The notes below the pieces were generated by a model. That model was not told where the DNA came from. It ran no database searches and saw only the letters and a list, made by a program, of their open reading frames with translations. A DNA stretch of 64,000 nucleotides, taken from Methanotrichaceae archaeon. Its GTDB lineage: Archaea; Halobacteriota; Methanosarcinia; Methanotrichales; Methanotrichaceae. This document shows positions 5,365 to 35,305 of this stretch, one piece after another. A program made the position numbers and the translations under genes. The DNA lies in contig CAVVKN010000022.1 of assembly GCA_963748825.1 (NCBI GenBank), positions 32,001 through 96,000 on the forward strand, in the 5' to 3' direction. Every line of letters starts with the position of its first letter. Position 1 is the first letter of the stretch.

Positions 5365-5484
5365 TATTTAATTCCTCCATTTATGAATCTAAATTTAGTA
5401 GGATGTTATTACATAAAAAGCTTTTGGTACCCAAATTTCAAGACACACAAGATATATAAACACGAAGCCTCGTTATGAATTGTC

Positions 5485-5607
5485 ATGCAAAAAACTACCT
5501 TGACCTTATCCGACCCGTTGGCCAAAACTCTGAAAGTTTATACCGTGCAGTCCAAGAGCAGTTTGCGGGCTCAAAGCCAGGTGGTTGAAGAGTTACGTCC
5601 CCAATAA
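5485..5607 (+). pseudogene. RHH gene copy truncated by an IS insertion
   Basis: MQKTTLTLSDPLAKTLKVYTVQSKSSLRAQSQVVEE; similarity ends abruptly at 5592. Confidence 0.75.
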
Positions 5608-6210
5608 GCTTATGGGAGTTGCATGAATAAGCTTGTAAGGGTACCATTAAAGCTCGATCCATATTAGGCGAGTTTCTCTGATCTCTTTACCAGGCCAAGT
5701 TATGCTTCATTCTGCCATATGACCACAACCATAGCCGTATGTGATAAATCTAAGACCGTTTTTAATCCTTATGAAACCATGGCCGATGATAACAAGGACA
5801 AGAAAGGGCGATCTTCTTACAATTGGTTTATCACCAACGGAGACTGGGATGAAGATGAAATAGCCCAGAGGAAGGCGGATTTGTTCTTCGAGGAGCTGTG
5901 CCTCAAAAAAGACAACCGATACTGCTAATCATTGATGATACCTATAACGAGAAGAAGGGCAAGCACACGGGGGTAGGGAAATTTTTCGATCACATTAAAG
6001 GCTTCATCTGGACAGGCATTCTACTGGTTAAGATCGAGAGCCCTCCATAGGGAGCAAAAAAGAAAACTATTGGCGAGATGGTTGATCAAGTCAGATCGGA
6101 ATCCATTGTTGACTTGATGGTTTATGTTATGGAATGATTTAATCTACCGATACCCGACGATGGAGGACTGCTCTACAAGCTCAAAGCGATAGGACTAAAA
6201 GTTGGAATCA
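5593..6210 (+). mobile_element. Internally deleted IS701-like DDE transposase remnant
   Basis: ATG at 5623 with an in-frame stop; SSYNWFITNGDWDEDE then a frameshift into LIIDDTYNEKKGKHT-GVG, the DDE_5/IS701-type first-Asp motif. Confidence 0.7.
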
Positions 6211-6843
6211 TGATATTTTACTATGTATCGCCCATTGATAAGCGAGAATCAGAGCGAAAAGCCATATCGTGCCGATGATATAGCTACCTAAAACATCGCT
6301 CGCCCAGTGCACGCCAAGAAATATACGTGACGGTCCGATTAGAACGATTAGCGCGCCGCAAATAGCGATAACGATCATGCGTGCCCGTCCAGCAAAATGT
6401 ATCCACGCCAGATAGGCAAAGAATCCAAAAAAGACGACAAAAAATAGGACATGCCCACTTGGATAGCTATATTGATTGATGCTCTGCAGGAATCCGCTGG
6501 CATTTTCAGTTACAGGGAATGGACGCGTTCTATGAATGAGCTCTTTTAGCACAAAAGCTAGCAGTGCGCTGCTGGTTGTGGCAATCATAAAGACCGCCTC
6601 TAGCCATTGGCGCCGTAACGCAAAGGTCAGCATAGTGATGGCGGTTAGCATCATAGCAATCGCTGGTTCGCCTAGAGCGCTAACCCCTCTCATCAGTCCG
6701 TCGAACAGTGGGCCGGCTTGCTCTTGCAACTCTTCGTAGGACTTCGAGTCGAAGGGCAAGACCGGGAACCGGGCTGCTGCATACGTGAGCAAGAGGGCCA
6801 ACAAAAGCAGGAGCACAAAAGTGATTGCGATATTTCTATTCAC
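6208..6843 (-). CDS. PAP2-family membrane phosphatase
   Basis: K(x6)RP, SYPSGH and SRIFLGVHWASD motifs; likely GTG start at 6843. Confidence 0.92.
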   Translation of the reverse strand: MNRNIAITFVLLLLLALLLTYAAARFPVLPFDSKSYEELQEQAGPLFDGLMRGVSALGEPAIAMMLTAITMLTFALRRQWLEAVFMIATTSSALLAFVLKELIHRTRPFPVTENASGFLQSINQYSYPSGHVLFFVVFFGFFAYLAWIHFAGRARMIVIAICGALIVLIGPSRIFLGVHWASDVLGSYIIGTIWLFALILAYQWAIHSKIS

Positions 6844-6922: not shown

Positions 6923-9160
6923 TCAAGGCACCCTCCAGGGCCACTTATCTCCATGACCGCAGTTTTCAATAAGGAACACGATCTCGTCCAATCTGCCGGG
7001 GGCCTCGGGATCTCCAAAGACGCCACTTGATTTTGTGCAGATTTCAGATTCTATTTTCGTATTTAAAGAGCTGGGTTCGAAGAGGCTATCTTCGATCTTT
7101 GCTAAATATTTTTTGCTTAATGACAGTAGATCTTCTTCTTCTAGCAAGGGATTGTTTAGGGTTCCCCTTGCATCCACCAGATAATCCTCCTCGTAATCTT
7201 GTTCTCGTGCTACACCAGTCCAATTGCTTGGGTCCTTCCTGGCCTCGGCAGGGTCGGCGGGCAGCCTAGGCGGCCTTATATCCACCGCAGCTTTGGTTTT
7301 GCCGTCAACATTAACAGGCCTTATCTGTTTATCGGCATTCCACCAAGGATCAGGTATCAAGTAAGAGTTCTGTGTTTTGACCGCCTTCTCAAAGGCATCA
7401 AAGAATTGCTTCCCCCATCCACTATTTGGATCGTTGAAATTGATCTGGCTTGGCCAGGCAATATCCGGAAAGAGGACACGCCAAAGCCTGCGATAATGCT
7501 TTAAGACTAAGTCCTCATCTAAAACAGCACAATCAAGTTCGCTATCACAGGTGAAGGATCTGCGATTCAGGTTTGCCGAACCACATACCAATAGACTGCG
7601 ATCATACATCTGAACTTTCGCATGACAGTAAATACCTCCTGTTGTTCGGGAAGGATGCCAGAGGTCATATACGCCTACGCGTTCGAATTTGCCGGAACCA
7701 AGCTTTAGGCCGTCAGTTAAATCATTTAGGGCAAGCTTCCTCGCATGGTGCACTTCAAGGGGATGATTATCGGCGTACGGTGGAAGCACTAAAATAACGC
7801 AAAGCTTCTTTTTCTTATCGTTTTTAATCCGGTGGTTAAGCAATCTGGCGAGGGGCCTGCTAAAGAAGTATTGATCAAAGATCCAGATCAATTCGTCTGC
7901 TGCCTGACATGCATTAGCGATTCCCGCCATGATTGTAAACTCCCCCCTCATGAACGGAGGCCTCTTGCGCTCTGTACGCAGGGGAATCGTACGCCACATC
8001 TGTACCAGAGATGAGCCCCCTGGCACAGGATCAACTTCCGTTGGCTCATTCAATCTCGTTACGTCATCATCCTTAACGGCAGTTCTTGAGCTGAAGATTA
8101 CTTGATTTGTTTTAATTTGTAAACTGTCCCAGAATCCAGGTTCATGCACGTTTCCAGAATCAATCCATCTCTCACAGAACTGCTCTTCCAGTGTCTTTAT
8201 GATTGGTCCCTGAAGCAGCAGGTGCTGATCGTGCCATATTTGATTATTATCACCATAAACTTCTTTTGGCAGATCGGGCTCAGGATTCGAAGGTATCGAT
8301 ACGTCACTTAAAGCATCATAAATTGTCGCCAAGCTTTTCGGCCAGCGATGAGTCTTATCCGGGACATCGAACATCGGTGGGACGTTCTTCCCTGATTGCC
8401 AGTCTCCGCCCAAGAATTGAGGTGGGCTAGATTCCATAAGAACGAGCAGGTCGTCTAACGTAGCACTCGGATCATATATGTAGGGATGTAACGCATCAGG
8501 TGTGTCTCTTCTGGTAAAGGCTAGATCTACACCCCCGCAATAAGCTACGTTTACATCACCCACGCGAATTACCATCATCTTTTGGTGGTGTGTAGAAGTT
8601 ATGGGAGACGCCACCCTCAAATCCAGAGCTACTATGCCTCGATCTTTGGCGCTGGGATCAGTCTTGCTCAGCCTTTCGCATTCCTTGCTTACAACTTCGG
8701 CTATGTAAAAATGATCGCTCATATGTGGGCCAAGGCCCGCAATTATGGACGCCTTTATCGGCAACCACAATAATATCTTAACATTGATCCCGGCCTGCAT
8801 TAGACGCAGGATAAATCCCATCATGGTCTGATCCTTTATTGAAGAATCGCTCTCGTTCCAGGGGCGATTTTGGATAATCCAAGGATTATCATCGGACAGG
8901 TCTCTCAAGGGATTAAGTCGAAAATCGGCGATATATACGTACCCTTTCTTGCCTTGTTTGGCCTCGGAGATGGCTGATTCCAGGGATTCCCTCATCGCAG
9001 ACAATGCCTCATACCCGCCAATCAGAGGGATGATCTTGCAGTTTTCATCCCAAGGCATGTAATTACCCTGCCTTTTGGCCATGTATGTATCATCTCCCCA
9101 GGGACGCCCCTCCCCGTTTGGTGAAAACTTCAGGAACCACTTGTTTGGATCAGCGACCAT
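6923..9160 (-). CDS. Phospholipase D-superfamily protein with two HKD-type motifs
   Basis: HHQKMMVI..AYCGGVDL, WHDQH, and HAKVQMYD..GSANLNRRS. Confidence 0.88.
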   Translation of the reverse strand: MVADPNKWFLKFSPNGEGRPWGDDTYMAKRQGNYMPWDENCKIIPLIGGYEALSAMRESLESAISEAKQGKKGYVYIADFRLNPLRDLSDDNPWIIQNRPWNESDSSIKDQTMMGFILRLMQAGINVKILLWLPIKASIIAGLGPHMSDHFYIAEVVSKECERLSKTDPSAKDRGIVALDLRVASPITSTHHQKMMVIRVGDVNVAYCGGVDLAFTRRDTPDALHPYIYDPSATLDDLLVLMESSPPQFLGGDWQSGKNVPPMFDVPDKTHRWPKSLATIYDALSDVSIPSNPEPDLPKEVYGDNNQIWHDQHLLLQGPIIKTLEEQFCERWIDSGNVHEPGFWDSLQIKTNQVIFSSRTAVKDDDVTRLNEPTEVDPVPGGSSLVQMWRTIPLRTERKRPPFMRGEFTIMAGIANACQAADELIWIFDQYFFSRPLARLLNHRIKNDKKKKLCVILVLPPYADNHPLEVHHARKLALNDLTDGLKLGSGKFERVGVYDLWHPSRTTGGIYCHAKVQMYDRSLLVCGSANLNRRSFTCDSELDCAVLDEDLVLKHYRRLWRVLFPDIAWPSQINFNDPNSGWGKQFFDAFEKAVKTQNSYLIPDPWWNADKQIRPVNVDGKTKAAVDIRPPRLPADPAEARKDPSNWTGVAREQDYEEDYLVDARGTLNNPLLEEEDLLSLSKKYLAKIEDSLFEPSSLNTKIESEICTKSSGVFGDPEAPGRLDEIVFLIENCGHGDKWPWRVP

Positions 9161-9516: not shown

Positions 9517-9672
9517 CTAGACTTCGATCAACACGTTGTGCCTCTCAAAGAACTCTTTTAATGCTTCTTCTACAACTTCACTTTGGGCACGCATGCTGCT
9601 CTTTGTTTTTGCCGTATAAACCTTAAGCGTTTTGGCTATAGGTTCGGATAAGGTCAATGTAGTTTTGGGCAT
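9517..9672 (-). CDS. 51-aa ribbon-helix-helix protein, intact copy, missed by the ORF track
   Basis: MPKTTLTLSEPIAKTLKVYTAKTKSSMRAQSEVVEEALKEFFERHNVLIEV; TATATA about 27 nt upstream. Confidence 0.8.
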   Translation of the reverse strand: MPKTTLTLSEPIAKTLKVYTAKTKSSMRAQSEVVEEALKEFFERHNVLIEV

Positions 9673-9879: not shown

Positions 9880-12171
9880 CTATCGGGCTATCTTTACCTC
9901 CACGAAATGCTCCTTTTGATCATCTACCAAGTGTATCGACCCGTCGCTCTGCACCAGGCCGTCAACCGTCACGCTTTGCGCTGCCCCCGCCCGCATAACC
10001 GTGATGTGGTAGAATGTCTCACGATAGCGGTAATGCAAGCGATACGACTTCCAATCATCAGGAAGACAGGGGGTAAAGCGTAGCCTGTCAACGTCCAGCC
10101 TCAGTCCAAGCAGCGATTCTACTATGAGGCGATACATCCAGCCTGCAGCTCCCGTGTACCAGGTCCATCCGCCGCGCCCGGTGTGCGGTGTGAATGCATA
10201 GACATCTGCTGCAACGACGTATGGCTCTGCCATGTAGATCGCAACCTCCTCCGGGGTCGAGCCGTGGTTTACAGGGTTGATAATAGACAATAGCTCCCAG
10301 GCCCTGGCGCTGTCGCCCATGGCAGCAAAAGCCATAATCACCCAAATAGCCGCATGGGTATACTGCCCGCCATTCTCTCTCACTCCCGGGACGTAGCCTT
10401 TGATATAGCCGGGATCGGAGTCGGACTTATCGAAGGGCGGCCCCAGGAGCTGTATCAGCGAGGCATCTCTATTGACCAGAATGCGATCCACTTCCTCCAT
10501 CGCCCTCTTCGATCTCTCTGGATCTCCGCCGCCGGATAGAACAGACCAGCTCTGTGATATGGAATCGATCTGACATTCCGCGTTGGCAGCGGACCCGAGG
10601 GTCTCTCCGTTATCGAAGTAGGCGCGCAGGTACCAATGGCCATCCCACCCGAACTCTTTGATCTTCTGGCGCAGATTGGAGGACTCGCTGCTACATTGAT
10701 CTGCAAATGCTGCATCGCCACGCAGAAGGGCAATCTCAGAGAACTTCATAAGCACGTGGTACTGGAAGAAGGCCAGCCAGACACTCTCGCCTCTGCCCTG
10801 ATAGCCTACGCGGTTCATGCTGTCGTTCCAGTCTCCGGAACCCATGAGGGGCAGGCCGTGCCGGCCAAACGAAAGACCTTTCCTGATGGCTCTGACACAG
10901 TGCTCGTAAAGGGTGCCGGACTCCTCTGACCTCGTGGGAAGGTCATAATAGGCCTCCTCATCAGGTTTTACGAGCCTGCCCTCAATAAATTTGATGCGCT
11001 CGTCAAGCACGCCGGTGTCTCCGGTAGCTGTTACGTATCGGTGAGCCGCCAGCGGCAGCCAGAGGTAATCATCAGTGCTGTGAGTGCGCGCGCCGCGTCC
11101 AGAAGGAGGATGCCACCAGTGCAAAACGTCTCCCTCCAGGAACTGGTGGGCTGCACATCGCAGGAGATGTTCCCTAACTAATTGCGGCTCTGTGTATATC
11201 AGCGCCATCACGTCTTGCAGTTGGTCGCGGAAGCCGAATGCTCCGCTTGACTGATAGTATCCGCTGCGCGCCCAGATGCGGCAGGCTAACGTCTGGTAGA
11301 GGAGCCAGCCGTTCGTAAGCACATTGATGGCCATATCCGGTGTCTCCACGTGCACCGCGCCAAGGGTGCGGTTCCAGTAGCTCCACACAGCCTCAAGAGC
11401 ACTTCTGGCCGGACCAGATCCGCGAAAACGCAAAATTAAGCTGCGAGCGTCGTTCGTATCCCGTCCAATGCCAAAAGTAAAGACGATCTCGCGCTCCTGC
11501 CCGTCTGCTAGATCGATCTCTACCTGCATGGCTGCACATGGGTCCATGGCCGCGCCAACTCTGTTGGAGAGTCTTTCACGCGCCAGGGCGGCAGGCTGGG
11601 CCATCTTGCCATTTCGGCCAAGGAACTCGGTCCTGTCCCCAGAGAAGCTGCCCACATCCTCGTTCACATCCAGGAAGACTATCCTTCCAGGAAAATCCGT
11701 GTTGTACGCATTTCTGGCAAAGAGGGCCCCGGTCCTGGGATCTATCTCTGTGGTAATGTGCATCCCCGTCTTAGAATGCGTCTCTCCCAGCACCAGCTCG
11801 ATGTAGCTGGTCACAGATAGCCTGCGGGACACGCCGGACTCATTGCGGACCAAGAGCCTGCAAAACTTCATGGGAGCGTCTATCGCCACGTATACCCACA
11901 GCTCAGATGCAATCCCACTCTCTTTGTGCTCGAAGACGCTGTAGCCGAACCCGTGCCTGCAGGTGTAAGGCGTCTTGCCGCGGGCGGGCAATGCCGTGGG
12001 CGACCAGAACGCTCCGCTCTCCTCATCGCGAATGTACAGAGCCTCGCCGCAGGTATCGCTCACCGGATCGTTATACCATGGTGTGAGGCGGAACTGCTGG
12101 GAGTTCTCGCCCCATGTGTATGCTCCGCCGCTCTCCGAGATTACAGTCCCGAAATTGGGGTTTGATATCAC
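9880..12171 (-). CDS. ndvB: Cyclic beta-1,2-glucan synthase, C-terminal GH94 phosphorylase part; frame continues upstream to about 12320
   Basis: YQSSGAFGFRDQLQD, GDWND and RENGGQYTHAA motifs; upstream in-frame FFNGLGGFTKDGREY...TPAPWSNVI. Confidence 0.9.
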   Translation of the reverse strand: MISNPNFGTVISESGGAYTWGENSQQFRLTPWYNDPVSDTCGEALYIRDEESGAFWSPTALPARGKTPYTCRHGFGYSVFEHKESGIASELWVYVAIDAPMKFCRLLVRNESGVSRRLSVTSYIELVLGETHSKTGMHITTEIDPRTGALFARNAYNTDFPGRIVFLDVNEDVGSFSGDRTEFLGRNGKMAQPAALARERLSNRVGAAMDPCAAMQVEIDLADGQEREIVFTFGIGRDTNDARSLILRFRGSGPARSALEAVWSYWNRTLGAVHVETPDMAINVLTNGWLLYQTLACRIWARSGYYQSSGAFGFRDQLQDVMALIYTEPQLVREHLLRCAAHQFLEGDVLHWWHPPSGRGARTHSTDDYLWLPLAAHRYVTATGDTGVLDERIKFIEGRLVKPDEEAYYDLPTRSEESGTLYEHCVRAIRKGLSFGRHGLPLMGSGDWNDSMNRVGYQGRGESVWLAFFQYHVLMKFSEIALLRGDAAFADQCSSESSNLRQKIKEFGWDGHWYLRAYFDNGETLGSAANAECQIDSISQSWSVLSGGGDPERSKRAMEEVDRILVNRDASLIQLLGPPFDKSDSDPGYIKGYVPGVRENGGQYTHAAIWVIMAFAAMGDSARAWELLSIINPVNHGSTPEEVAIYMAEPYVVAADVYAFTPHTGRGGWTWYTGAAGWMYRLIVESLLGLRLDVDRLRFTPCLPDDWKSYRLHYRYRETFYHITVMRAGAAQSVTVDGLVQSDGSIHLVDDQKEHFVEVKIAR

Positions 12172-12280
12172 ATTCGACCACGGAGCTGGGGTCGCTTGTC
12201 CAGGAGCAATCCGGATTATGTACTCGCGCCCGTCCTTTGTGAACCCGCCAAGACCATTGAAGAAGATCAGATCCCGGCCG

Positions 12281-15200
12281 TTAGACGTAGCCGCCTCGTT
12301 GTTCTCGACCTGGATCAGCCTTTTTTTGCTTTAACAGAGGAACGGTTCCCAAGAGTCCACTCTTGCGTTCGAGCTGATCCTCAAAAGTTCCCTGGTCATC
12401 TGTGAAGATGGCCTTGGCCACGGCCTGTACCAGGATCCTGGCCTCATCAGAGATCTGATCCGTGTGCAAAACAAATACGCCGCCCGGCCGGTCCAGAGTG
12501 CAGGCTTCAGTGCAAGAGGAAATCAGGCCCATAATATCGTCCTGGAGATGCTGTCTGTATCCAGAGCTGTCTTCGTTCCAGACCACTAGATCTACTTCCA
12601 GCCCCATCATGCGCCAGTAAGCATGGGCCCTCAAGAGCTGGTGCACCAGCTCGATGTAAGATCGATCTCCTATCCTCAGCAGTACAATCGGATAGTCGCC
12701 CGAGATGCGGTAAGCCCACAGGCCTGACTGGCCACTGTGGTTGCTCAAAAGAACGCTCGGGCTGGCGCGCCAGGTTGGGCTGGGGTAGAGTATGGCGCTG
12801 ACAAGTCGCTCATAGAGCTGGATATCGGCCTCGGCGATGTTCAGCTGCTGCATGATCATCTGGTTGTGAGTCCAGGCCAGGTCGTAGACGCGGTCTGCCA
12901 TGCGCACGTCGTGGTATTTATCGATCAGCTCCATGGCGGCAGCCCGCGTCTCTGCAATGCCTGTGATGAAGTTGACCCTGGCCGTCTCTCCGGGATTGAT
13001 CGTGACAACGCGCCTGATGGCAACGATGGGATCTAAGACAGATCCTTCGCTATCTGAGAGCTTTGATGACCCCGTCAAAGCCACAGGATCTGCGGCAGTT
13101 CTTCCCCTGCCTATGAACTTCAAGCGGTCTGTTTCATAGGAAACTTCGTCAACCTCAATGTTCTCCGCTGCGATCAGGTGCAGCATCCAGGGAGTTCTCT
13201 CGTCCTTCGACCTTGGCCGGCGGGTGCAGAGGATCGCAGATCTCTTGCGGACGATCTCCGTTTCTACGAAGAGATTGCTGAAAGAGGGATGTGTCGCATC
13301 GGCTGCAGGGGTCGTCAAGACGACCTCTGCATAGCTGGTCAGCTCTATCCTTCGCTTTCTCAATGATCGGTTGGTGACGCTGATGCTGCGTAGCTCCAAA
13401 TCGTCCTCAGGGGAGACGACCACTTCGGCATAGGTATCAATATCCGAGACCCTTGACCAGAATTCTGCCATCGATCCCCGGAAGATCGCCTGGTACGTCT
13501 CAGTGTCTCTGAGCACAGGTTGATATCCTGCAGACCAGACCTCGCCGCTGTCCAGGTCACGGATATAGAAGAACATGCCATCATTGTCGCGGGTGGGGTC
13601 ACCATGCCAGCGAGTAACAGCGATCTCCTTCCATTTGCTGTAGCCCCCGCCTGAACTGGAGACCATTACACTGTATTTGCCATTAGAGAGCAGGTGCACC
13701 TCTGGTCGGGAAGTGTTCGGATCATCGATGACCCGCAGGGACTCGCGCCTGTCCAGCATGCCGGCCCTCCAGATTGATGCCGAAACCTCAGAAGCATGGG
13801 GATAGAAGGGCGAGGCCTTCGGAACCCTCTCTTGGAGAAGCAGATCCGCAGCCTGGAAGATAGGGTTGGCCATGAACCTTCTTTGCATGGGTCGGTCTAA
13901 AAGCACATAATCCAGAGATAGGAAGCTCATGCCCTGGTGGTGGGCCATGAAGGACTGCACAGTTGCACTGGTCTCGTCTCGAGGAAGACGCGATGAGGTG
14001 TAATCGATCGCCTCGTAGAAGCCATACAGCCCAAGATAGCCCTCGTCAGCCATCCGCTGCAGGTTGGTGCATGCCTCAGCCGGTTCCACCATCAGTGCCA
14101 GAGCCGAGGCGTAAGGCGCAATCACCAGGTCCTCAATCAGCCCGCGCTTAAATCCCAGGCCAGGCGCTCCGAAGGCGCGGTACTGGTAAATCAGGTTGAC
14201 ATCTGTCATGTTGTAGCCCGACTCTGAGATGCCCCAGGGAACTCCGCGCTGTTCTCCGTATTCGATTTGTCGCCTGACGATCGCCCTATAGGTTTGGCTT
14301 AAGAGGGTGTTCTCATAGGTAGGCATGATCAGTTGCGGCATGAGATACTCGAACATGGTTCCACCCCATGAGAGCAAAGCCAGCTCTCCGCCTGCGATGG
14401 TAAGCATGCGACCCAGGGCAAACCAGTGCTCTTGCTTAAGACTCCCTTGGGCGATGGCAACGAAGCTGGATAACCTGGCTTCGGATGCCAGCAGATCATA
14501 GCAGCTCTCATCGCGTCTGAGGTCGTCGACGTTGTAGCCTATGGCAAGAAGCCGACGTGACTTATCGAAGAGGAAGTCGTATCTTATTTCGGCAAGCTCG
14601 CCGCAGTCAAGTGCGAGCCTCTCGATGGAGGAAATCCTTTGGGCGGCTCTTTCGCCTGCCTGTGTTATCATTTGCTTGAGCGAAAGGAGCCATTCTCTCT
14701 CTTCCCCGCTCTGCAGGCTGCTAAGGATCTCTTCAATCATAGGCTTGAGTTTCATAGCCATTTCTGGCACTTCCAGCAGAGATGGAATGCTGTCAAGCTT
14801 GAGTAGTTCTATTTGCAGTTCGTCCATCCTTCTTGCCTCTTCTGCGAATTCAGGAGTAAAGACATCCTCCTTGATAGGATGGATCATCACCCATAGAGGC
14901 AACATTAGCCATGGAGCCGTTTGAATCAAGTCGTCCAGATGGTCCTGGATCTGCAACTCATACGCCTGGAGCCATGACTTCACACTTTCATCTACTTCCG
15001 GGGCCAAGCTATCTATTATCCCTGTTACAGCCCTTGCTTGCTTGTCCAGCAGCATCCAGGCAGCCAGGAGCGCAGATGGAGGCGACAAAAGCTCATCCTT
15101 AAACTGACGGATCTGGTCGAGCACCTGCATAGGCATGATTTCATTCTCAGGCTCATGCAAAGGCTCGTCTCTTGTTGCCATATCCAAAATAATATACAAC

Positions 15201-27862: not shown

Positions 27863-28394
27863 TGAATACACTCTCCACGTTGCTTGATGTTCTTTTCCAC
27901 ACTCGTTCCCAATGCCGATAGCATCGACATTATTGGATATAAGTCTTTCGACTTTATGATCTATAGAGCCATACATAAAAAAAATATTGGCTTAAATCTC
28001 TTCAAATCAACTATATTTCAAAGAGCGTATGTGTTATCAATTGTTAATTTCGATTCGCTTGTTTTGTAAATGTAAATATCAAATTTATTATATTCAATTA
28101 AAGACAGATGTCGTACTTGGGTTTGACTGTATGACGGGAAAATTTTATATATTGAAATAACTGGATATGGATGTCCAGACAGCCCTGCAATTGGGGCGGA
28201 TTTAGAAGTTAAAGGTGAATGACCAAAATGAGCCCAGTTCAATGCGAAATCTGCAATAGTGAAGTAGAATCCCTCTTCATAGTCAGTCACAAAGAGAGAG
28301 GGAGAATAAGAATATGCGAGGGTTGTTTGAAGCAAGAAGCGCAAAACCTCCTGGCTCAAAAAAGCTGCGGTTGCTGTTGAGAGAGGATCAGTCT

Positions 28395-28787
28395 ATGGCA
28401 TGTGTTCCGAAAGAGGCTGTCAGCAGGATGACGCGGCTGATTGGAGACGCCGATAAGGCCGAGTGCAAAGTCAATAAGCTGCGCTCCATTACAAGCAAGC
28501 TGGATGAGAAGGACATCGAAGTTGAGGCAGAAATATTCAAGGCCATGGCCGATCCCTGCCGCCTCAAGATCCTGTCGCTTCTGCGGGAAGGCGAGCTATG
28601 CGTCTGCGAGATCATGATCGGCGTGGACCGACCGCAATCCAGCACTTCTCACCACCTCTCCATCCTCAAGGATGCAGGGCTCATCAAAGAACGCAAGGAC
28701 GGAAGATGGTCCAGATACCGGCTGTCCGAAGGCACTGTAATAGATATGCTCAATTTAGTGAAGCTGATGAAAGAAGCTAAAGTCTGA
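28395..28787 (+). CDS. arsR: ArsR/SmtB transcriptional repressor
   Basis: FKAMADPCRLKIL, ELCVCEI and SHHL..LK.AGL motifs. Confidence 0.92.
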   Translation: MACVPKEAVSRMTRLIGDADKAECKVNKLRSITSKLDEKDIEVEAEIFKAMADPCRLKILSLLREGELCVCEIMIGVDRPQSSTSHHLSILKDAGLIKERKDGRWSRYRLSEGTVIDMLNLVKLMKEAKV

Positions 28788-28802: not shown

Positions 28803-29834
28803 ATGACCAAATTCAATACTATTGGAATTCTGATACTTTCCTTGATAGCTTTTGCTCCCGTGGTGGACGCAGGCTGCAGTTGCAGTGGGGGCACCTGGGA
28901 TCCCAGTGGTTTCCTGAATTCTGAGCTTGGCACGGGCCAGCCCGTTCCAGGAACCAGCAAAGTTAGCGCTGCGGAAAATTCAGGGAGCGGCACGCAAGAG
29001 CCGTTAGATAGAGTGGCATCCTTCCCTAATGGTGCGATCATCAAAGCTATGAAGAGCGTTTCCAGCTCAGATGTGGTAATGGACGTGTCTAACGGAAACA
29101 GCTATGCATCGTCCCACATTAAGGACGCCATTCACATTCCAAGCAAAGACTTCCTTAACGGCGAAGGCGACCTTAAGACAGATGAAGAACTTGCCAAGGT
29201 CCTAGGCGATGCCGGTGTTTCCAGAGACGATTCCATAGTTCTTTACGGTAGCAAAGAGAGCTTTGGCGAGGCTGAATTTGCTTTCTTGGTGCTGCGCTAT
29301 CTGGGACAAAAGGACTTGTTGCTCCTGGACGGAAGCCTGGCAGACTGGAAGGCTGCGGGACTGCCCGAGCAGGTATCGGGGAACATAAAGCCTGGCGTAG
29401 AGTACAAGCCCTTGGTCAAGCCAGAGGTAATAGCCGAATACGAATATGTGAAGTCCGGCCAGGCCCAGATCATAGACGTCCGGCCTTTTGTGGAATTTGG
29501 CAAGGGTCGCATACCAGGTTCTACCGCACTGGATCCATCCAATGTGATCAAAGGGGATAAGATCAAAAACAGCGATGATCTGAGCGCCATTTTCAGCAGG
29601 TTGGACAAAGACAAGCCGATTGTGGTCTATTCCGATGATTACAGCCGGTCATCTCTGGTCTGGTATGCCCTGCAGCTCATGGGATATGAGGCCAGCATCT
29701 ACACCTGGGAGGACTGGAAGGCGCACAAGTCTGGGGAAGTGGCTACTGAAACGACCTCAGACACCGGAAACAAGACGTCCACTGCCGGTGAAGACGCTGC
29801 AGGCTCGAAGTACACAAAGCTTGGCACGACATGA
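28803..29834 (+). CDS. Exported tandem rhodanese-like protein
   Basis: Signal peptide, [16 protein letters not shown] and DVRP..F..GRIPGS; active-site loops lack Cys. Confidence 0.82.
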
Positions 29835-29871
29835 GAAACTTTTAATTTTTTATCAATGGAGGGAGGAGTTA

Positions 29872-30972
29872 ATGTCAAATGGTGTCAGTAAGGGCCTGGA
29901 TTTCTTATCCCGCTACCTTACTGTCTGGATCTTTGTAGCCATGTTCCTGGGAATAGCAATAGGCTACTATGCGCCCGGAATTACCCAGTTCATCTTAAGC
30001 CTGCAGATCGGCACAACATCAATACCTATCGCCATTGGCCTCATTCTGATGATGTACCCGCCCCTGGCCAAGGTGAAGTATGAAGAGCTGGGTAAAGTCT
30101 TCCAGGATAAAAAAGTCCTCAGCCTCTCCCTGATACAGAACTGGATCGTTGGTCCCATCCTGATGTTTGCGTTGGCGGTAATCTTCCTGCGAGACTCGCC
30201 TCACCTCATGTATGGCATAATCCTCATCGGCCTGGCTCGCTGCATTGCCATGGTCATCGTCTGGAATGAGCTGGCTCGCGGCTGCACCGAGTACTGCGCC
30301 GCCCTGGTGGGGCTTAACTCCATATTCCAGGTGCTGTTCTATTCAGTCTACGCTTATGTTTTTATCACAGTGCTGCCGGCTGCCCTGGGAATCGCTGAGG
30401 GAACGCTGGTCAACGTAACAATTGCACAAATTGCAGAGAGCGTTTTCATATATCTGGGCATACCCTTCCTGGCCGGCATAATCACCAGATTCAGCCTGAT
30501 CAAGGCCAAAGGAAAAGTCTGGTACGAGAGAGATTTTATACCTAAAATCTCGCCCCTGACTCTGATTGCCCTTCTCTTCACCATCGTGGTGATGTTCTCT
30601 TTGAAGGGCGACTACATCGTACAGCTTCCCCTGGATGTGGTGCGAGTGGCCATACCTTTGGCTATATACTTCCTGCTCATGTTCTTTGTCAGCTTCTTCA
30701 TGGCTTACAAACTGGGAGTTAACTACGAGAACACGGCCGCTCTATCCTTCACTGCGGCCAGCAACAACTTCGAGCTGGCCATCGCTGTAGCGGTGGGCGT
30801 CTTCGGCATCGCCTCCCAGGAGGCGTTCGCTGCGGTGATCGGGCCTCTCATCGAGGTTCCGGTTTTGATTGGATTGGTAAATGTGGCTCTAAAGCTGAAA
30901 GAGAGGTATTTTGCAGGGGCCAAGGCAATATGTGATGTCCATAGCAAAAATGAATTGTTTAGAATTTTTTAA
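29872..30972 (+). CDS. acr3: ACR3-family arsenite efflux permease
   Basis: [27 protein letters not shown] and GPLIEVP motifs. Confidence 0.96.
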
Positions 30973-31059
30973 ATTAACTAAATTTCAATTTTTGTGTCCG
31001 TTTCAGATCTGCAATAATTTTATATTCTCATCCATACCATCATATGCTGGTGAAAAAAG

Positions 31060-31275
31060 ATGAAGATTGGCGAAAAAAATGTTGGCATGATTGATCGTGT
31101 TATCCGGATCATTCTTGGTATTATCCTGCTGTACCTATTCGTGGTGAATATGGTTGCAGCACCGTGGTCGTATCTTGTTGCGCTTATCGGACTTATCCTG
31201 CTCGTGACCGGGGTTATTGGGACCTGTCCGCTCTATTCGATGCTCGGCATGAATACGCTAAGCAAGAAGGCGTAG
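31060..31275 (+). CDS. DUF2892 (YgaP-like) membrane protein
   Basis: KNVG.IDR.IR and TG..G.CPLY..LG.NT motifs. Confidence 0.9.
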   Translation: MKIGEKNVGMIDRVIRIILGIILLYLFVVNMVAAPWSYLVALIGLILLVTGVIGTCPLYSMLGMNTLSKKA

Positions 31276-31326
31276 GTGGAGGAAATAAAAAACTTGTAGT
31301 TTTGAGTTCGTCGCAGAGTGACTCTG

Positions 31327-31479
31327 CTAAATCCGCATTGTTGGTCCGGCGCCGGCTTTGTCACAAAAGCTCATATCATAGAACATGCCTCGGCGGTGGC
31401 GCATAATCATGGTCAAGTCCGCCACCGTTGTTTCCCGAATCAGCTTATCAACTTTCTCTGCAAAACCGGATGCCTTCAT
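31327..31479 (-). pseudogene. Truncated GNAT-like cassette ORF (50 aa)
   Basis: IRETTVADL..IMRHRRGMFYDM resembles a GNAT N-terminus; follows an attC-like site. Confidence 0.5.
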
Positions 31480-31508
31480 GTGGTCATACCTATGCCGAAT
31501 ATAGTGCT

Positions 31509-31572
31509 CACCAACACAGAGCCGAGCCAGAGCGCCCTATTCCGCCGATTGTCTCCAGCGCCATTGTTAGCC
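31509..31572 (-). other. Degenerate attC-like site
   Basis: R'' GGCTAAC overlaps the GNAT stop codon; the right arm pairs poorly. Confidence 0.5.
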
Positions 31573-32079
31573 GGTTGCAGCAAAGCCATCATGAAATACC
31601 ACAGTACCACTGGTTTTGCTTTCTTCGAACGGCAACACAAGAACGTACTCTTGCGGAACGCCGTCAATAACCAAGTCCGGGGGACTTCTGAAGCCGAACC
31701 GTTCGTAGTAGCCGGGATCTCCCACGAGCACGCAGCCCTTTGCACCCAATGACTTTAGTGAGGAAAGGCCTTCACGCATCAAGGATTTTCCGATACCCTG
31801 CTTCTGTAATTCTGGCAAGACAGAGATGGGACCGAGACCATACCAACCGAGGCTACCATCGGAAATAGTCACAGGCGAGAAAGCTATGTGGCCTACCACC
31901 TTTTTCCCAGCAACTGCCACCAACGAGATTGTAAGCACATTCGCATCTCGCAGTGCATTAATGATGAACTGTTCCGTGTGGTTACTAATTGCAAGATTCT
32001 CAAAAGCTGCTTTCGTGATCTCCGATATCGCTTTGATGTCCGACTTGATCTCATTGCGGATAACGATGTTCATGTCCAA
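31567..32079 (-). CDS. GNAT N-acetyltransferase (YhbS-like), cassette-borne
   Basis: VVGHIAFSPV, LGPISVLPELQKQGIG and LVGDPGYYERFGF motifs. Confidence 0.92.
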   Translation of the reverse strand: MDMNIVIRNEIKSDIKAISEITKAAFENLAISNHTEQFIINALRDANVLTISLVAVAGKKVVGHIAFSPVTISDGSLGWYGLGPISVLPELQKQGIGKSLMREGLSSLKSLGAKGCVLVGDPGYYERFGFRSPPDLVIDGVPQEYVLVLPFEESKTSGTVVFHDGFAATG

Positions 32080-32107
32080 CTCACACCTCGTGCTTTATCT
32101 ATTGACT

Positions 32108-32166
32108 GCTAAACAACGTGCATCTACCCGCGGCTGAAACCCGTTCGGGAAATGCCTTGGTTGGGC
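32108..32166 (-). other. attC site (59 bp)
   Basis: GCCCAAC-CAAG-GCATTTCCCG...CGGGTAGATGC-ACGTT-GTTTAGC. Confidence 0.7.
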
Positions 32167-32190
32167 TTTCTGTAAGTCCTTTGATCATTT

Positions 32191-32623
32191 CTAGCGCCAT
32201 GTGTGCTGACAATAAAGACATTGCGATTTATGAACACAGAGTATCTCACCGCATTTAGGGCAGCTCCACCTTTCTTTTTCGTTTCTGATGAAATGCCTTA
32301 TGCCGAATTTTCTAATGTTCTCGAGATTGCCGATCATGCTCATGCCATACTTGGTTCTATACCGCTTATCCAAATGGTTCAGCCTGACGCAAGGAAAGCT
32401 GTCACAACCAAAGCAGTACTTGACTTTAGCGTTCACCATCTTCTCACAGTTCTTGATTCGACATACTACGCAGGATTTCGATTTGAGGCTGTCGTCACCT
32501 CGGCAACCGGGGCATGGTTTCTTATCTCTTGTGAATGCGACGGCAGAGGCGGCAATTCATTCCGCAGGGAGCGATTAGCTTCGTGGAAATTGCGGTCGTT
32601 TTTGTCGATCTCTTTGATGTCAT
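32191..32623 (-). CDS. DUF3795 Cys-rich protein, cassette-borne, with a +1 frameshift near 32542
   Basis: IAPCGMNC.LC / CPGCR...C.IKNC...YCF.C..FPC..L..LDKRY...C..CG. Confidence 0.8.
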
Positions 32624-32665
32624 GACATGATCCTGTAGAGGCTATGTGAGGCCATCATTACTTAA

Positions 32666-32727
32666 GCCCAACGACCAAAATCAGCGGCGGCGCGTTTCGC
32701 GCCTTACGCTGGATTGGCTGGTCAGTT
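32666..32727 (-). other. attC site (62 bp)
   Basis: AACTGAC-CAGCC-AATCCAGCG..GGCGCG AAA CGCGCC..CGCTGATT-TTGGTC-GTTGGGC: 5/6-nt spacers and one extrahelical base in the L box. Confidence 0.8.
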
Positions 32728-32992
32728 GCCCAAGACCTTCTTCCGTCTCAATAATTGTGCTGTGCTGAAAAATGGTCGAATGCTCTCCCTCTGTTCTTTT
32801 TATTTCCCCACTACAGTGTTCTGACCAAACACACATCTTCTCCAGTAAAGAACGAATCTAGAAATCCTTATATATGAATAAATTGATTTGCCTTTGAATT
32901 AATATTACTTTGGTAGGACGTGTTGATGCTGGATAAAGAACTGCCAATGATCCATAGTAAAAGATTGCCCCTTCCTCTGTCGGAGGAAAATA

Positions 32993-33394
32993 ATGAATCC
33001 TGCCAGGACAATAGCGCTTGCTGCGACGCAGAAAATACTCTGGCCAGGCTTTATGGAGATCAGAGCATTAGCTAGAGAGCGATGTCTCCAGGTATGCACT
33101 CAAGTAAAAAAGATAGATGAAGAGGATTTAACTGCCGAGATGAAGGTCTTTAAGGCTGCAGCGGATGCGACCCGCCTCAAGATTCTCAAACTTCTAAGCG
33201 GAGGAGAGCTTTGCATTTGTGAGATAATGCTGGCTCTGAAAAGACCGCAGTCCTCCATATCCCATAATCTATCCATACTTGAGGACGCAGGCTTGGTAAA
33301 AGAGAGAAAAGAGGGAAAATGGTGTCGCTACAGGATCTCGGATGGGGCAGTTACTGATATGCTCAACTTAGCCGGACGGCTTAAGAGAAAGTAA
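32993..33394 (+). CDS. Second ArsR/SmtB regulator; N-terminus probably frameshifted near 33070
   Basis: FKAAADATRLKIL and ELCICEI motifs; an alternative upstream frame gives SACCDAENTLARLYGD, similar to the first ArsR. Confidence 0.85.
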   Translation: MNPARTIALAATQKILWPGFMEIRALARERCLQVCTQVKKIDEEDLTAEMKVFKAAADATRLKILKLLSGGELCICEIMLALKRPQSSISHNLSILEDAGLVKERKEGKWCRYRISDGAVTDMLNLAGRLKRK

Positions 33395-33410: not shown

Positions 33411-34219
33411 GTGGACAATATGGTTGGAGGACAGGCAGACGTTAAGCTCGTGAGCAACGCCATGGCCAATGCCACGAGAAGGAAGATCATGGCCATGCTG
33501 GTTGAGAAAGAGAGAACTAGAGTTGAGGTCGAGCAGGCAGCGGGAGCCAGCATGCTGGACTATCACCTGCAGATGCTACAGCAGGCGGGCCTTGCCGATA
33601 TGAAGGAGGACCTGATCGTCCTGACCGATTTCGGAAAGAATTTCATGGATACCAAGACCGAGAAGCCAGCCGTTGCCAGGAAGGACCTTTCCGGAACCGC
33701 GCCCCTGCAAGATAACTGAGGTGCGGCAGCTTCTTGCCCTGCATTGCCGATGTCTCCAAATTTCGCATCATCGCCCGGCTGGAGCCGAATTTGGGCGGGG
33801 CCCTAAAACTACTGGAGCCTCTCTTTCCCAGGGCCAGGTTCTCTGAGAGGATCGGAGCCCTCATCATTCAAAAGGGCAATGTCCTCATCACCCTCTACTC
33901 TACAGGCAACGTGACCATGACCATGATCAGCAGCGAGGCCGAAGCCCGGGCAGTTTTGGAAAGCCTGAAAGAGACCATCAATAAGGCCATCGCTAGCGGC
34001 GTAACTCCCGTTCCCAGGGAGAAGGTCAAAGTGGATCACGCTGAGGTCTACAAATATCTGCCCAAGACCGACTGCAAGATCTGTGGAGAGCAGAGCTGCT
34101 ACGCCTTTGCCATCCGGCTGGTGGGAGGAGAGACAGCTTTAGAGAAGTGCACGCCCCTTCTAGAGCCCAAGTTCGCCACCAGCCTGGAGACGCTGCGAGC
34201 CCTGCGAGAGTATTTGTGA
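33411..34219 (+). CDS. ArsR-like HTH fused to an Fe-S-binding (PKTDC..CG..C) domain; split by indels near 33708-33733
   Basis: AMANATRRKIM..YHLQML HTH; LPCIAD...; YLPKTDCKICGEQSCYAFA...CTPL. Confidence 0.78.
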
Positions 34220-34275
34220 ACGGTATGTTGTGAGCAGTATGTTATGAGTAGTATGGAAAATTTGAGGACTCGCAG

Positions 34276-34647
34276 ATGGGCACACTGACCATCATCCTGA
34301 CGGACGGGCCTTACATCTCGCAGTATGCCGAGATGGCCTACAAGATTGCTAAAGTGGCCCTGAAAGCGAATGCGCACAGAGTAAATATCTTCCTCTATCT
34401 GGATGCGGTTCATATCCCCAAAGCCGGCCAGAATCCCGCTTTTTTTGCCAATGCGGGAGAGCTCTTTGCCGAACTGGCCCGGCTGGGGACAAAGGTGGAG
34501 GCCTGTCCCAGGTGCGCTACAGCGCGGGGCTATGCGCCCGAGGTTGGAACCAGCGATGACTATGTAGAGGGGATCAAGATCACCAGCCTCTACCGCCTGG
34601 CACAGATGCTGGAAGAGAGCGACAGAGTGGTGACTCTAGCAAGATGA
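34276..34647 (+). CDS. DsrE/TusD-like sulfur relay protein
   Basis: IFLYLDAV and ACPRCATARG motifs. Confidence 0.85.
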   Translation: MGTLTIILTDGPYISQYAEMAYKIAKVALKANAHRVNIFLYLDAVHIPKAGQNPAFFANAGELFAELARLGTKVEACPRCATARGYAPEVGTSDDYVEGIKITSLYRLAQMLEESDRVVTLAR

Positions 34648-34985
34648 GATCGCTTTTCTTTCTTCTGGACAGTGCCCCCTACGGCAGCGAGAAGGCATTC
34701 GGCCTGCTCAATGCTGCAGCGGTGTCCAGCAAGATGGACGTAGTCGTGGGCCTGTATGGAGATGGCGTCTACCTGGCCCTGGCCGGTCAGGACAGCAGAG
34801 CTCTGGGACTGCCCAATCACTCCGATATCCTCTACGCCTATCCGGAGATGAGGATCTTAGCCCATGAGCTCTCCCTGGCAGATCGAGGCCTTATGAGCGC
34901 CGGCCTGGTGGAGAGAGTGGAGCTAATGGACGAGGAGAAGTTCTTTGAGGAGATGCTGGAATCGGATGGCATTATACTTTTATGA
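34644..34985 (+). CDS. DsrF/TusC-like protein
   Basis: SAPYGSE, GDGVY and SLADRGL motifs; overlaps the neighbouring gene (ATGA). Confidence 0.82.
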   Translation: MRSLFFLLDSAPYGSEKAFGLLNAAAVSSKMDVVVGLYGDGVYLALAGQDSRALGLPNHSDILYAYPEMRILAHELSLADRGLMSAGLVERVELMDEEKFFEEMLESDGIILL

Positions 34986-35305
34986 GAATATTTCTTTTGA
35001 CAAAGACGCCACACAGCGAGCGCACAAGACTCTGCCTGCGACTTGTAGCCGGCTCTGTTGATGCTGTGGTCTATCTGGCCGGGGATGGAGTCTACAATCT
35101 ACTGGGCCGGGCAGAGGCCGTTGAGGCAGGTCAGGCCGGCCAGGATTTGGTGACGCTTGTGGCCAGGAATAGAATCATAGCCTGCCGGGAAGACCTGGAG
35201 GCGAGGGGAATCTCTGCTGAGGGAAAGGCAACTGTGCCCACCGATTTCTATGAGAGTCTGGTTGATGACATGATGAGGGATGGCAGCCAGGTTTATTCCT
35301 TTTAG
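34982..35305 (+). CDS. DsrH/TusB-like protein
   Basis: LAGDGVY and EDLEARG motifs. Confidence 0.85.
   Translation: MRIFLLTKTPHSERTRLCLRLVAGSVDAVVYLAGDGVYNLLGRAEAVEAGQAGQDLVTLVARNRIIACREDLEARGISAEGKATVPTDFYESLVDDMMRDGSQVYSF

Follow-up and report, generated by a model that had tools for sequence, protein, structure and literature searches.

A probable remnant of an integron-type gene-cassette array without integrase beside arsR in the chromosome of Methanothrix

A probable cassette remnant between arsenic-related genes

Between the genes of an ACR3-type arsenite transporter and a YgaP-like membrane protein on one side and a divergent arsR gene on the other, the chromosome of Methanothrix carries what we consider, with a probability of about 0.8, to be all that is left of an array of integron-type gene cassettes without integrase (CALIN type), now reduced in size. 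The remnant extends from position 31327 to position 32731 of a stretch of 64,000 nt, called the window in the following, which was taken from a Methanotrichaceae archaeon (GCA_963748825.1, contig CAVVKN010000022.1, positions 32,001-96,000 of the forward strand). The assembly comprises 25 contigs, and the cassette slot is situated inside a contig of 210 kb. In all likelihood the array is old, has been inherited vertically and is decaying. That the cassettes are of the integron type is concluded from the match of an attC covariance model, the exact cassette-rule pairs in the window and in relatives, and the homology of both an ORF and its recombination site to bacterial integron cassettes. The initial annotation had proposed a cassette array within an ars cluster; site 1, the DUF3795 gene and the GNAT gene substantiate this proposal, but sites 2 and 3 turned out to be degenerate and the DUF3795 gene to be frameshifted in the assembly.

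The flanks of the slot are well defined. On the left, the ORF of the ACR3-type arsenite transporter, as listed, occupies positions 29620-30972 of the plus strand (Pfam SBF, 194.3 bits); its true start is probably located further downstream, since the ORFs of relatives encode 356-359 aa. It is followed by the gene of a YgaP-like/DUF2892 membrane protein (31060-31275, plus strand; Pfam PF11127, 81 bits), which is convergent with the cassettes. On the right lies the gene of an ArsR-family regulator (32993-33394, plus strand; Pfam HTH_5, 59.7 bits), which is syntenic in relatives. A motif search revealed a conserved A+T-rich, TATA-like motif at the arsR-side edge of the variable slot (32856-32878). 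With up to three mismatches allowed, the motif is found beside the slot in the window and in nine of the nine other loci searched. It is a candidate for a promoter shared by arsR and the cassette strand.

attC sites and cassette genes of the window

Integron integrases fold the bottom strand of attC into a hairpin and cut between the G and the TT of the R' box, so that a cassette starts with TTRRRY and ends with the complementary R''. In the attC consensus, R' (GTTRRRY) and R'' (RYYYAAC) are paired. Sites were searched for with R1, a covariance model built in this analysis from 17 bacterial class 1 integron attC sites only; it is a small home-made model, distinct from that of IntegronFinder, and its E-values are rough. 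In the training set 81.6% of the R1 structure is paired, a value reached by none of 500 shuffles. In the window together with nine Methanothrix loci (156,228 bases, 312 kb when both strands are counted) R1 yielded seven matches at E-values up to 10, all seven on the cassette strand and within the variable slot. The top match was the attC of the same-genus genome G016 (31.6 bits, E 6.6e-6). Genomes G011 and G012 contributed three and two matches, respectively, at E-values up to 1.3, of which just one was below 0.05.

The covariance-model check recommended in the initial annotation returned a match exactly at the first of the sites it had listed, site 1 (32666-32727, minus strand). Site 1 scores 20.3 bits, with an E-value of 0.0084 over the 156,228 bases on both strands and of 1.1e-4 over 2 kb on both strands; scaled to the whole genome, the E-value would be approximately 0.16. 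The bottom strand folds with -18.5 kcal/mol (z -2.86), and two of 200 shuffles fold as well. R', with the sequence GTTGGGC at 32672-32666, fits GTTRRRY, and crossover would be expected between G32672 and T32671. One extrahelical G is present in the L box, AATCCAGC/GCTGATT, this unpaired base being positioned as in the training attCs, and the fold permits spacers of 5 and 6 nt. R'' is imperfect: in the register of the 5-nt spacer it reads AACTGAC, with GAC for AAC. An alternative, AAC-bearing R'' (GGGCAAC, 32731-32725) is found 4 nt further outward, and in the minimum-energy fold it is this box that pairs. Both arms of site 1 align with the attC downstream of DUF3795 in loci of Anaerolineae and Nitrospirota, and its L box is identical to that of the attC in the bacterial loci L043 and L048. 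The description of site 1 as an attC with 5/6-nt spacers and an extrahelical base is supported by the R1 match, the fold, R' and the L box, the exception being R''; the site is still attC-like.

A scan of the whole genome that combined a PWM with pairing gave eight matches with scores of at least 18, of which site 1 was the highest (26.2). The same scan of three shuffled genomes gave 9, 9 and 17 matches, among them three scores of at least 26.2, and therefore site 1 alone is not significant genome-wide. The scan showed no second attC cluster in the genome of the window, and a direct sequence search of this genome found no extra copies of sites 1 to 3, homologues being present only in relatives. 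A search of the window against Rfam gave no match. This blank counts for nothing, as the aadA1 attC of plasmid R100 likewise goes undetected and Rfam therefore contains no attC family.

The gene of the DUF3795 cassette (32191-32623, minus strand) was delimited by three-frame translation, Pfam PF12675 and an alignment designated A2. The match to PF12675 (31.1 bits, gathering cut-off 22.6) is on the frame-B part of the gene. As read in the assembly, the frame is broken by an insertion of 1 nt at 32539/32540, which may be a mutation or an assembly error: in the three-frame translations frame A extends from 32623 to a stop codon at 32524-32522 and frame B from 32556 to 32194. Alignment A2 puts the break between CRLC and AFTRDKKPCPGC. 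In four of four sequencing runs, none of which contained more than 0.20 of the sampled words, environmental contigs of relatives have one letter fewer at 32539 or 32540. The family had been named correctly by the earlier reader, who had overlooked the frameshift.

The DUF3795 cassette's own site, site 2 (32108-32166, minus strand), is recognized by its boundary words and by its homology to the G016 attC. Its R'' (GCCCAAC, 32166-32160) is the exact reverse complement, in seven of seven positions, of the R' of site 1, so that the cassette rule claimed for the DUF3795 unit (GTTGGGC/GCCCAAC) is confirmed to the letter. Its R' (GTTTAGC, 32114-32108) has one T more than the GTTAGCC of relatives. R1 assigns 3.1 bits to site 2, which folds no better than shuffles (z -0.80). 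With an identity of 87% over 77 nt to the 31.6-bit site of G016, but with a low score and a poor fold of its own, it is a decayed member of the attC group and not a working one. The exact R'' and the homology speak for the attC assignment, but score and fold do not.

The second cassette gene, at 31567-32079 of the minus strand, is intact and encodes a GNAT acetyltransferase, as had been annotated. The listed start is a TTG at 32079, and an ATG follows at 32073. The ORF matches three Pfam families (PF13508, PF00583 and PF13527) with 36.6, 34.8 and 33.7 bits, all above the gathering cut-offs. The cassette rule, which had also been claimed for this unit, is imperfect in the window, where GTTTAGC faces GGCTAAC with one base extra, but it is exact in G016 and G008, where the matching junction reads GTTAGCC (seven of seven positions complementary to GGCTAAC).

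Site 3 (31509-31572, minus strand) is a remnant identified by its R boxes only. R'' (GGCTAAC, 31572-31566) does overlap the stop codon of the GNAT gene, as stated previously, and a putative R' (GTTGGTG) is located at 31515-31509. R1 recovers nothing beyond the R boxes (9.0 bits, E 0.14 in 2 kb), and site 3 forms no hairpin (fold z +1.03). Of the proposed partial attC there remain R'' and the R-box match, but neither a fold nor a full model match. Beyond site 3, the ORF list contains a remnant of 50 codons (31327-31479, minus strand) that reaches a further R''-like box (GACCAAC, 31346-31340). It had been taken for a truncated GNAT gene. The ORF is present and truncated, but a relation to GNAT was not found: there was no Pfam match even at an E-value of 10 and no longer homologue among proteins. 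Its homologue in G008 extends to 137 codons, and the nearest named Atlas clusters of the latter are AstA/GNAT at 0.90-0.92, which is a weak lead only.

Integrase and present activity of the array

The integrase IntI was searched for with the profile TIGR02249 at a cut-off of 265 bits. As positive controls, IntI1 scored 508.6 bits, and two of five bacterial genomes with the DUF3795 cassette contained a protein above the cut-off. In the window's own genome the highest score was 28.1 bits, and none of 105 Methanotrichales genomes contained IntI at E 1e-20, in accordance with the earlier statement that the array has no integrase. A tyrosine recombinase of G011 was considered as a hidden integron integrase and rejected, its scores of 53 bits with TIGR02249 and 152 bits with XerA being below both cut-offs. 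The gene of this XerA-like recombinase adjoins the G011 array, and its neighbours code for PrimPol and helicase, an arrangement like that of an integrated element.

The array might still be active in Methanothrix if an integrase were supplied in trans or if an unrecognized archaeal tyrosine recombinase acted on the attC hairpins. This would agree with the differing cassette order among species, with joins at the R' box. It would also agree with variants among the environmental contigs that skip 32089-32176, 31481-31564 or 32688-32835, all at or inside attC sites, and with the position of the XerA-like gene next to the G011 array. The first of these segments, 88 bp in length, is missing in G011, G012, G020 and two contigs of environmental run X4. 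However, the end points of the deletions are not G|TT but short repeats or places between similar attC sites, as slippage or homologous recombination would produce. Together with the 0 of 105 genomes positive for IntI, the G011 recombinase that is below both cut-offs and sits among PrimPol and helicase genes, and the decay of sites and genes, this makes continued activity improbable. We likewise regard it as unlikely that the Methanothrix chromosome still takes an active part in the bacterial cassette pool while lacking an integrase of its own. Insertion of cassettes beside the arsR promoter and their reshuffling would then be the work of a non-IntI archaeal tyrosine recombinase or of integrase from syntrophic bacteria, and the arsR-linked TATA element would serve as Pc. 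If this were true, cassette expression would be tied to arsenic stress.

Counterparts in bacterial integrons

The reading of the array as an integron remnant receives support from bacteria. Homologues of the DUF3795 protein with 68-76% identity are found in Anaerolineae, Nitrospirota, Thermodesulfovibrionales and deltaproteobacterial records, these bacterial labels being MAG bin labels, of which that of L038 looks mis-binned. The DUF3795 cassette, with the boundaries GTTGGGC/GCCCAAC, occurs in attC arrays of Anaerolineae, Nitrospirota, Caldisericales and other bacteria. In 80 bacterial DUF3795 loci R1 found 24 matches, 23 of them on the strand of the gene. Matches directly 3' of DUF3795 scored 34.6 bits in L043 and 32.3 bits each in L069 and L070; the cassette head GTTGGGC is present in L043, L049 and L062, and the R'' GCCCAAC in L043, L069 and L070. 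The Methanothrix array and those of L062/L117 (Caldisericales) and L043 (Anaerolineae) have in common the same gene (58-78% aa identity), the head GTTGGGC and ORFs in one direction, and with L043 the Methanothrix array also shares the R'' GCCCAAC, an attC of the same family and the same L box. They differ in that the bacterial DUF3795 arrays have strong attC sites of up to 49.9 bits, whereas the Methanothrix sites are weaker, and in that a full, divergent IntI (408.6 bits) is encoded 861 bp from the L062/L117 array, whereas the Methanothrix arrays are without integrase.

Traffic of cassettes between the domains, as proposed in the initial annotation, is supported for DUF3795 only, where the window and the Anaerolineae cassette share 78% of the amino acids and 80.7% of the nucleotides over 493 nt, and this traffic was old. 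In an unrooted tree the DUF3795 genes of Methanotrichales form one clade with a starred value of 99, and their join to the bacterial rows has a support of 83; being unrooted, the tree gives no direction of transfer. For the GNAT gene no bacterial integron counterpart was demonstrated among the matches listed (at least 120): all have identities of 80-95%, and those with names belong to Methanothrix sp. The suggested best-hit taxonomy thus leads from DUF3795 to several bacterial phyla but from GNAT to close relatives of the Methanothrix type only.

It is very unlikely that the small genes of the locus form an ordinary operon in which GTT/AAC words and intergenic hairpins resemble attC by chance. 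Such look-alikes would explain why sites 2 and 3 fold no better than shuffles and why the PWM scan gave site 1 no genome-wide significance; the Rfam blank counts for nothing here. This reading is already contradicted by the location of all seven R1 matches on one strand inside the slot, by the recurrence of exact cassette-rule complements, and by bacterial arrays beside IntI in which the ORF recurs with identical boundary words and a homologous attC.

Conservation of the slot in Methanothrix

The same flanks and cassettes are present in the same-genus genomes G008, G011, G012, G016, G019 and G020; among the relatives are a one-contig (closed) chromosome of 3,043,341 bases and a contig of 879,906 bases. 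The same-genus slots contain longer one-directional arrays of 14-18 small ORFs, which in the relatives are of kinds typical of cassettes: GNATs, glyoxalase, methyltransferases, DJ-1, SnoaL, DUF3795 and TIR. A cassette array is also indicated by the GNAT gene, which is preceded by three different partners; in G016 and G008 the join is at the R' box. Exact 7-nt complements of head and R'' were found in G011 (GTTATGC/GCATAAC, then GTTCGGT/ACCGAAC) and in G012 (GTTGGCG/CGCCAAC). Junctions that break the rule also occur in relatives, among them GTTAGTC followed by a GCCCAAC unit in G011 and GTTAGAC before the glyoxalase gene in G012.

The synteny of the slot across the genus, including the closed chromosome, settles its presence in an archaeal chromosome and excludes contamination. 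The archaeal host claimed initially is upheld, with no mis-join of slot and flanks, which are syntenic up to the one-contig 3.04 Mb chromosome. Identities of flanks and cassettes to the window are 88-89 and 93% for G016, 86-88 and 90-92% for G012, and 81-82 and 80-86% for G020. Because cassette identity tracks flank identity across the genus, the traffic is old and not recent. A bacterial integron fragment joined to an archaeal contig during assembly or binning can be dismissed as extremely improbable, even though the assembly is in 25 contigs and reports of archaeal integrons are mostly based on MAGs (Ghaly et al. 2022, Sci Adv, PMC9668308), for the slot lies within a 210 kb contig, recurs with its flanks in six same-genus genomes and has cassettes whose identity follows that of the flanks.

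Proposed history and relation to known integrons

According to the established attC mechanism, each unit of the Methanothrix array would be a former mobile cassette composed of an ORF and an attC site. The cassette pool of anaerobic bacteria living in the same habitat may have supplied the array, or its first cassettes, to an ancestor of this Methanothrix clade, and inheritance would have been vertical since then. As the integrase is absent in the order as sampled, the attC sites are presumably no longer maintained. In sister species cassettes have been fused or lost through deletions at or between similar attC sites. The GNAT gene, being intact and conserved, is probably domesticated and might be transcribed from the TATA-like element shared with arsR.

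Sedentary integrons of the Vibrio superintegron type are chromosomal and vertically inherited, with attCs that are alike within an array and with cassettes rich in GNAT and glyoxalase-type genes. They keep intI, attI and Pc and reshuffle under stress. The Methanothrix array resembles them in that it is chromosomal and vertically inherited, in the likeness of its attCs to one another and in its wealth of GNAT and glyoxalase-type genes, but it has no recognizable intI or attI and apparently changes by deletion and duplication.

The array joins the kind reported by Ghaly et al. (2022, PMC9668308). In that work, archaeal attC clusters without IntI are described whose attCs overlap the diversity of bacterial attCs, and archaea and bacteria are reported to have 23 attCs (95-100% identity) and one cassette (92%) in common. 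The supplement lists one Methanotrichaceae MAG of the GTDB genus Fen-7 with two attCs and no IntI (PMC9668308). Like the archaeal CALINs of that survey, the Methanothrix array consists of attC without IntI and has a cassette in common with bacteria. It differs from the cases described there in that it is seated throughout a genus at the same chromosomal position, a conserved slot flanked by ACR3 and arsR, and is visibly decaying. No description of the slot was found in the accessible text of Ghaly et al. (2022, PMC9668308) or in the accessible literature that pairs 'integron' with 'Methanothrix'. A CALIN is defined, as quoted in that text, by at least two attC sites that are separated by less than 4 kb and lack a neighbouring intI (PMC9668308). 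By R1 the window has one attC site, and under a strict criterion of at least two the genome of the window may go uncalled.

The archaeal integrons published so far come almost wholly from fragmentary MAGs, for which bacterial contamination is a constant concern. Methanothrix species are globally important acetoclastic methanogens, and in this genus integron-type cassettes are found at one syntenic slot genus-wide. A concrete cassette, DUF3795 with its attC, is common to Methanothrix and to integrons of bacteria from its surroundings, namely Anaerolineae, Nitrospirota, Caldisericales and Desulfobacterota-type bacteria. The slot illustrates the fate of an array after loss of the integrase: the sites are eroded, cassettes become fused and certain genes, among them that of GNAT, are retained. 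It also offers a natural series of species in which the decay and domestication of cassettes can be studied.

Layout of the locus

The window holds a real but eroded gene-cassette array on the minus strand. In cassette-strand order, from 32731 to 31327, it comprises a hairpin-forming site (site 1, 32666-32727), a DUF3795 gene, site 2, the GNAT gene (31567-32079), which is intact, site 3, overlapping with the stop codon of GNAT, and a 50-codon ORF (31327-31479). On the left it is flanked by an ACR3-type transporter (ORF 29620-30972; Pfam SBF, 194 bits) and a plus-strand gene for a YgaP-like membrane protein (31060-31275), on the right by the divergent arsR (32993-33394). The initial annotation, which had read this stretch as a cassette array, is borne out with three corrections. 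For the 50-codon ORF, which had been called a truncated GNAT, the family was not established. This ORF reads into an R''-like GACCAAC and AATGC, followed by a perfect 6-bp hairpin and a T run (31290-31346), which could represent either the remnant of a fourth attC or a terminator serving the convergent YgaP-like gene; with E up to 10 allowed, our covariance model (see below) found no match there.

Both ArsR paralogues (28314-28787 and 32993-33394) are preceded by similar A+T-rich TATA-like motifs, at 28152 and 32878, which may act as operator or promoter elements common to the two genes. Downstream of arsR (33734-35305) lie genes for an Fe-S cluster-domain protein (PF04060), a DsrE/F-like protein (34276-34647, Pfam) and two further small ORFs. 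Together with a rhodanese (28803-29834), these genes point to a module for sulfur transfer linked with the ars genes.

Recombination sites and integrase

Rfam yielded no match in the window; it also missed the aadA1 attC of plasmid R100, and therefore has no attC family. A covariance model (R1, whose E-values are rough) was built from 17 different attC sites, each excised just after a cassette ORF from 15 class 1 integron stretches of plasmid records. In their alignment the R-box/L-box structure paired 81.6% of cells, which none of 500 shuffles equaled and which compares with 23-54% in slid controls. A search of both strands of the window and nine Methanothrix loci (156,228 bases) returned seven matches at E up to 10, all on the cassette strand and all inside the variable slot between the ACR3/YgaP-like genes and arsR. 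The best was in the same-genus genome G016 (6298-6355; 31.6 bits, E 6.6e-6), followed by site 1 in the window at exactly the coordinates first annotated (32666-32727; 20.3 bits, E 0.0084). The others were in the same-genus genomes G011 (8928-8989, 19.1 bits; 6683-6742, 12.9 bits; 5952-6008, 12.3 bits) and G012 (14057-14114, 15.6 bits; 9521-9583, 15.2 bits).

Three attC sites had been annotated, of which only site 1 is still attC-like. With filters off over 31000-33000, it reached E 1.1e-4, site 3 scored 9.0 bits in its R boxes only, and site 2 scored 3.1 bits. Site 1 folds at -18.5 kcal/mol (z -2.86), as against z -0.80 for site 2 and +1.03 for site 3. A chance resemblance was weighed: the R'' of site 1 is imperfect, its E scaled to the genome is about 0.16, and a genome-wide PWM-plus-pairing scan ranked it first, yet three equally high scores occurred in three shuffled genomes. 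Taken alone, site 1 is therefore suggestive and not decisive; the question is settled by comparison with other genomes. In line with the reported lack of an integrase, searches for IntI found none in the whole genome, where the best TIGR02249 score was 28.1 bits, or in 105 Methanotrichales genomes (64 of high quality), none of which had a match at E 1e-20.

The slot in related genomes

The host falls in one genus with records titled Methanothrix sp. In same-genus genomes, one of them a closed chromosome, the stretch from ACR3 to arsR is a variable slot. The slots of G012 and G011 carry 14-18 small ORFs on one strand only, including two methyltransferases, OmdA, GNATs, DUF3795, TIR, glyoxalase, DJ-1/PfpI, Fpg, SDR, DUF4365, PEMT and SnoaL; such a mix is the usual content of chromosomal cassette arrays. 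Among the G012 cassettes are a TIR-domain protein and a 1004-residue caspase (Peptidase_C14)-DEAD helicase fusion (7952-8608 and 11026-14040), which are defence-like genes.

The cassette rule, by which the starting box of a unit is complementary to its terminal R'', is exact in multiple independent units, among them the DUF3795 unit of the window (GTTGGGC, then GCCCAAC), as initially annotated, and units in G011 (GTTATGC, then GCATAAC; in the next unit GTTCGGT, then ACCGAAC) and G012 (GTTGGCG, then CGCCAAC). For the GNAT unit the window's head, GTTTAGC, has one extra T, which explains the imperfect match first noted; the rule is exact in G016 and in another same-genus genome, G008 (GTTAGCC ahead of GNAT, tail box GGCTAAC), where the GNAT join lies at the R' box. 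The upstream partner of GNAT differs: in the window it is DUF3795, in G016 it is a glyoxalase cassette, and in G008 it is yet another, third unit. Some junctions in relatives break the rule, as is expected where sites were lost.

Beside the G011 array (L036 = G011:C29, 11420-12370 and 1-10700) lies a XerA-like tyrosine recombinase (152 bits, under the cut-off of 220), which was rejected as an integron integrase (TIGR02249, 53 bits). It stands amid PrimPol-, helicase- and topoisomerase VI-like genes, so that the gene set probably represents an archaeal element that has integrated there. The terminal ~115 bp of ACR3 (window 30805-30919) recur inside the slots of G012, G011 and G020 (L013 5672-5788; L014 1750-1863; L012 6841-6893), with a methyltransferase gene separating this second copy from the first, which looks like a target duplication from an element integrating into the ACR3 3' end.

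Bacterial counterparts of the DUF3795 cassette

The proposed cross-domain cassette traffic is supported for DUF3795 only; the GNAT homologues (at least 120 among the matches listed, all 80-95% identical) are Methanothrix wherever named. Among the at least 120 matches listed for DUF3795 are proteins of Nitrospirota (74%) and Acidobacteriia (70%). A survey that took a single genome for each species gave 80 DUF3795 loci, including Anaerolineae (76%), Thermodesulfovibrionales (75%), Nitrospirota (71-72%) and deltaproteobacterial (68-71%) records. With E up to 10 allowed, R1 matched these loci (678,949 bases) at 24 places, of which 23 are on the DUF3795 strand. Some of the matches directly follow DUF3795, in the Anaerolineae record L043 (34.6 bits) and in loci L069 and L070 (32.3 bits each), and five form an array in the Caldisericales record L062. 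The bacterial cassette starts with GTTGGGC in L043, L049 and L062, and the R'' that it has in L043, L069 and L070 equals that of the window, GCCCAAC. The window cassette shares 78% of amino acids and 80.7% of nucleotides (over 493 nt) with that of L043, and both arms of site 1 align with the attC after DUF3795 in L043, L045 and L048, the L box being the same. Of five bacterial genomes searched, two have an IntI above the TIGR02249 cut-off; the one in the Caldisericales record is a divergently transcribed gene, separated by 861 bp from the array.

One 45.8-kb record titled uncultured Chloroflexia bacterium (L038) has the arsR-side TATA-like motif and half of site 1 (around 4870-5600). It has a DUF3795-GNAT fusion at 89% identity and falls within the Methanotrichales clade; probably this is Methanothrix DNA that was placed in the bin of a Chloroflexia MAG.

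Descent and decay of the array

The cassettes of relatives are identical to those of the window to a degree that follows the identity of their flanks. In G016, which has no DUF3795, the flanks are 88.4 and 89.5% and GNAT 92.6% identical; in G012 the flanks are 88.1 and 85.7%, GNAT 89.6% and DUF3795 91.5%; in G020 the flanks are 81.4 and 82.3%, GNAT 86.0 and 79.7% and DUF3795 83.9%. In a quick, unrooted DUF3795 tree of 77 rows (L093 dropped for internal stops; L050, L054 and L070 left out), the window and the Methanotrichales rows form one starred clade (99*), which adjoins deltaproteobacterial, Anaerolineae and Nitrospirota rows with a support of 83, and the domain label switches at least three times on starred branches. 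These sequence comparisons fit one old acquisition and subsequent vertical descent; the tree gives no direction of transfer.

The DUF3795 gene first annotated is present but is a pseudogene in this assembly: frame A runs in translation from the ATG at 32623 to a stop at 32524-32522, the Pfam match lies in frame B (32556 to 32194), and in an alignment with 12 homologues the break falls between two motifs, CRLC and AFTRDKKPCPGC. In all four public runs compared, the relatives' contigs are one letter shorter at 32539 or 32540, so that the window has one extra base there. This base may be a mutation or a sequencing error; the runs are of relatives and not of the sample behind the assembly, the best of them containing 0.20 of the sampled words.

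Array decay is plain. G011, G012 and G020 have lost the 88 bp at 32089-32176, on which site 2 lies, and this loss creates a DUF3795-GNAT fusion; the same joint occurs in two contigs of run X4. Other joints in relatives' contigs from public runs skip 31481-31564 and 32688-32835. Some attCs in relatives are cut to R''-R' stubs (e.g., L014 9641-9674 and L013 10046-10068), in which R' follows R'' within 0-5 nt, the whole hairpin being gone and both core words kept. The deletions end in short repeats or between similar attCs and not at G|TT; therefore, an integrase is unnecessary to explain them.

Relation to known archaeal integrons

Ghaly et al. 2022 (PMC9668308) described integrons, mostly CALINs (attC clusters without an integrase), in 75 archaeal MAGs, including one Methanotrichaceae MAG with two attCs, and attCs and one cassette common to archaea and bacteria. 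Among the papers listed that mention both Methanothrix and integrons, none is about this slot, to judge by titles and abstract openings. The Methanothrix array is a further member of the kind that Ghaly et al. described. To the arrays presented there, it adds a syntenic slot found genus-wide and also in a closed chromosome, a named cassette (DUF3795) that is shared along with its site, and an example of how an array decays in the absence of an integrase.
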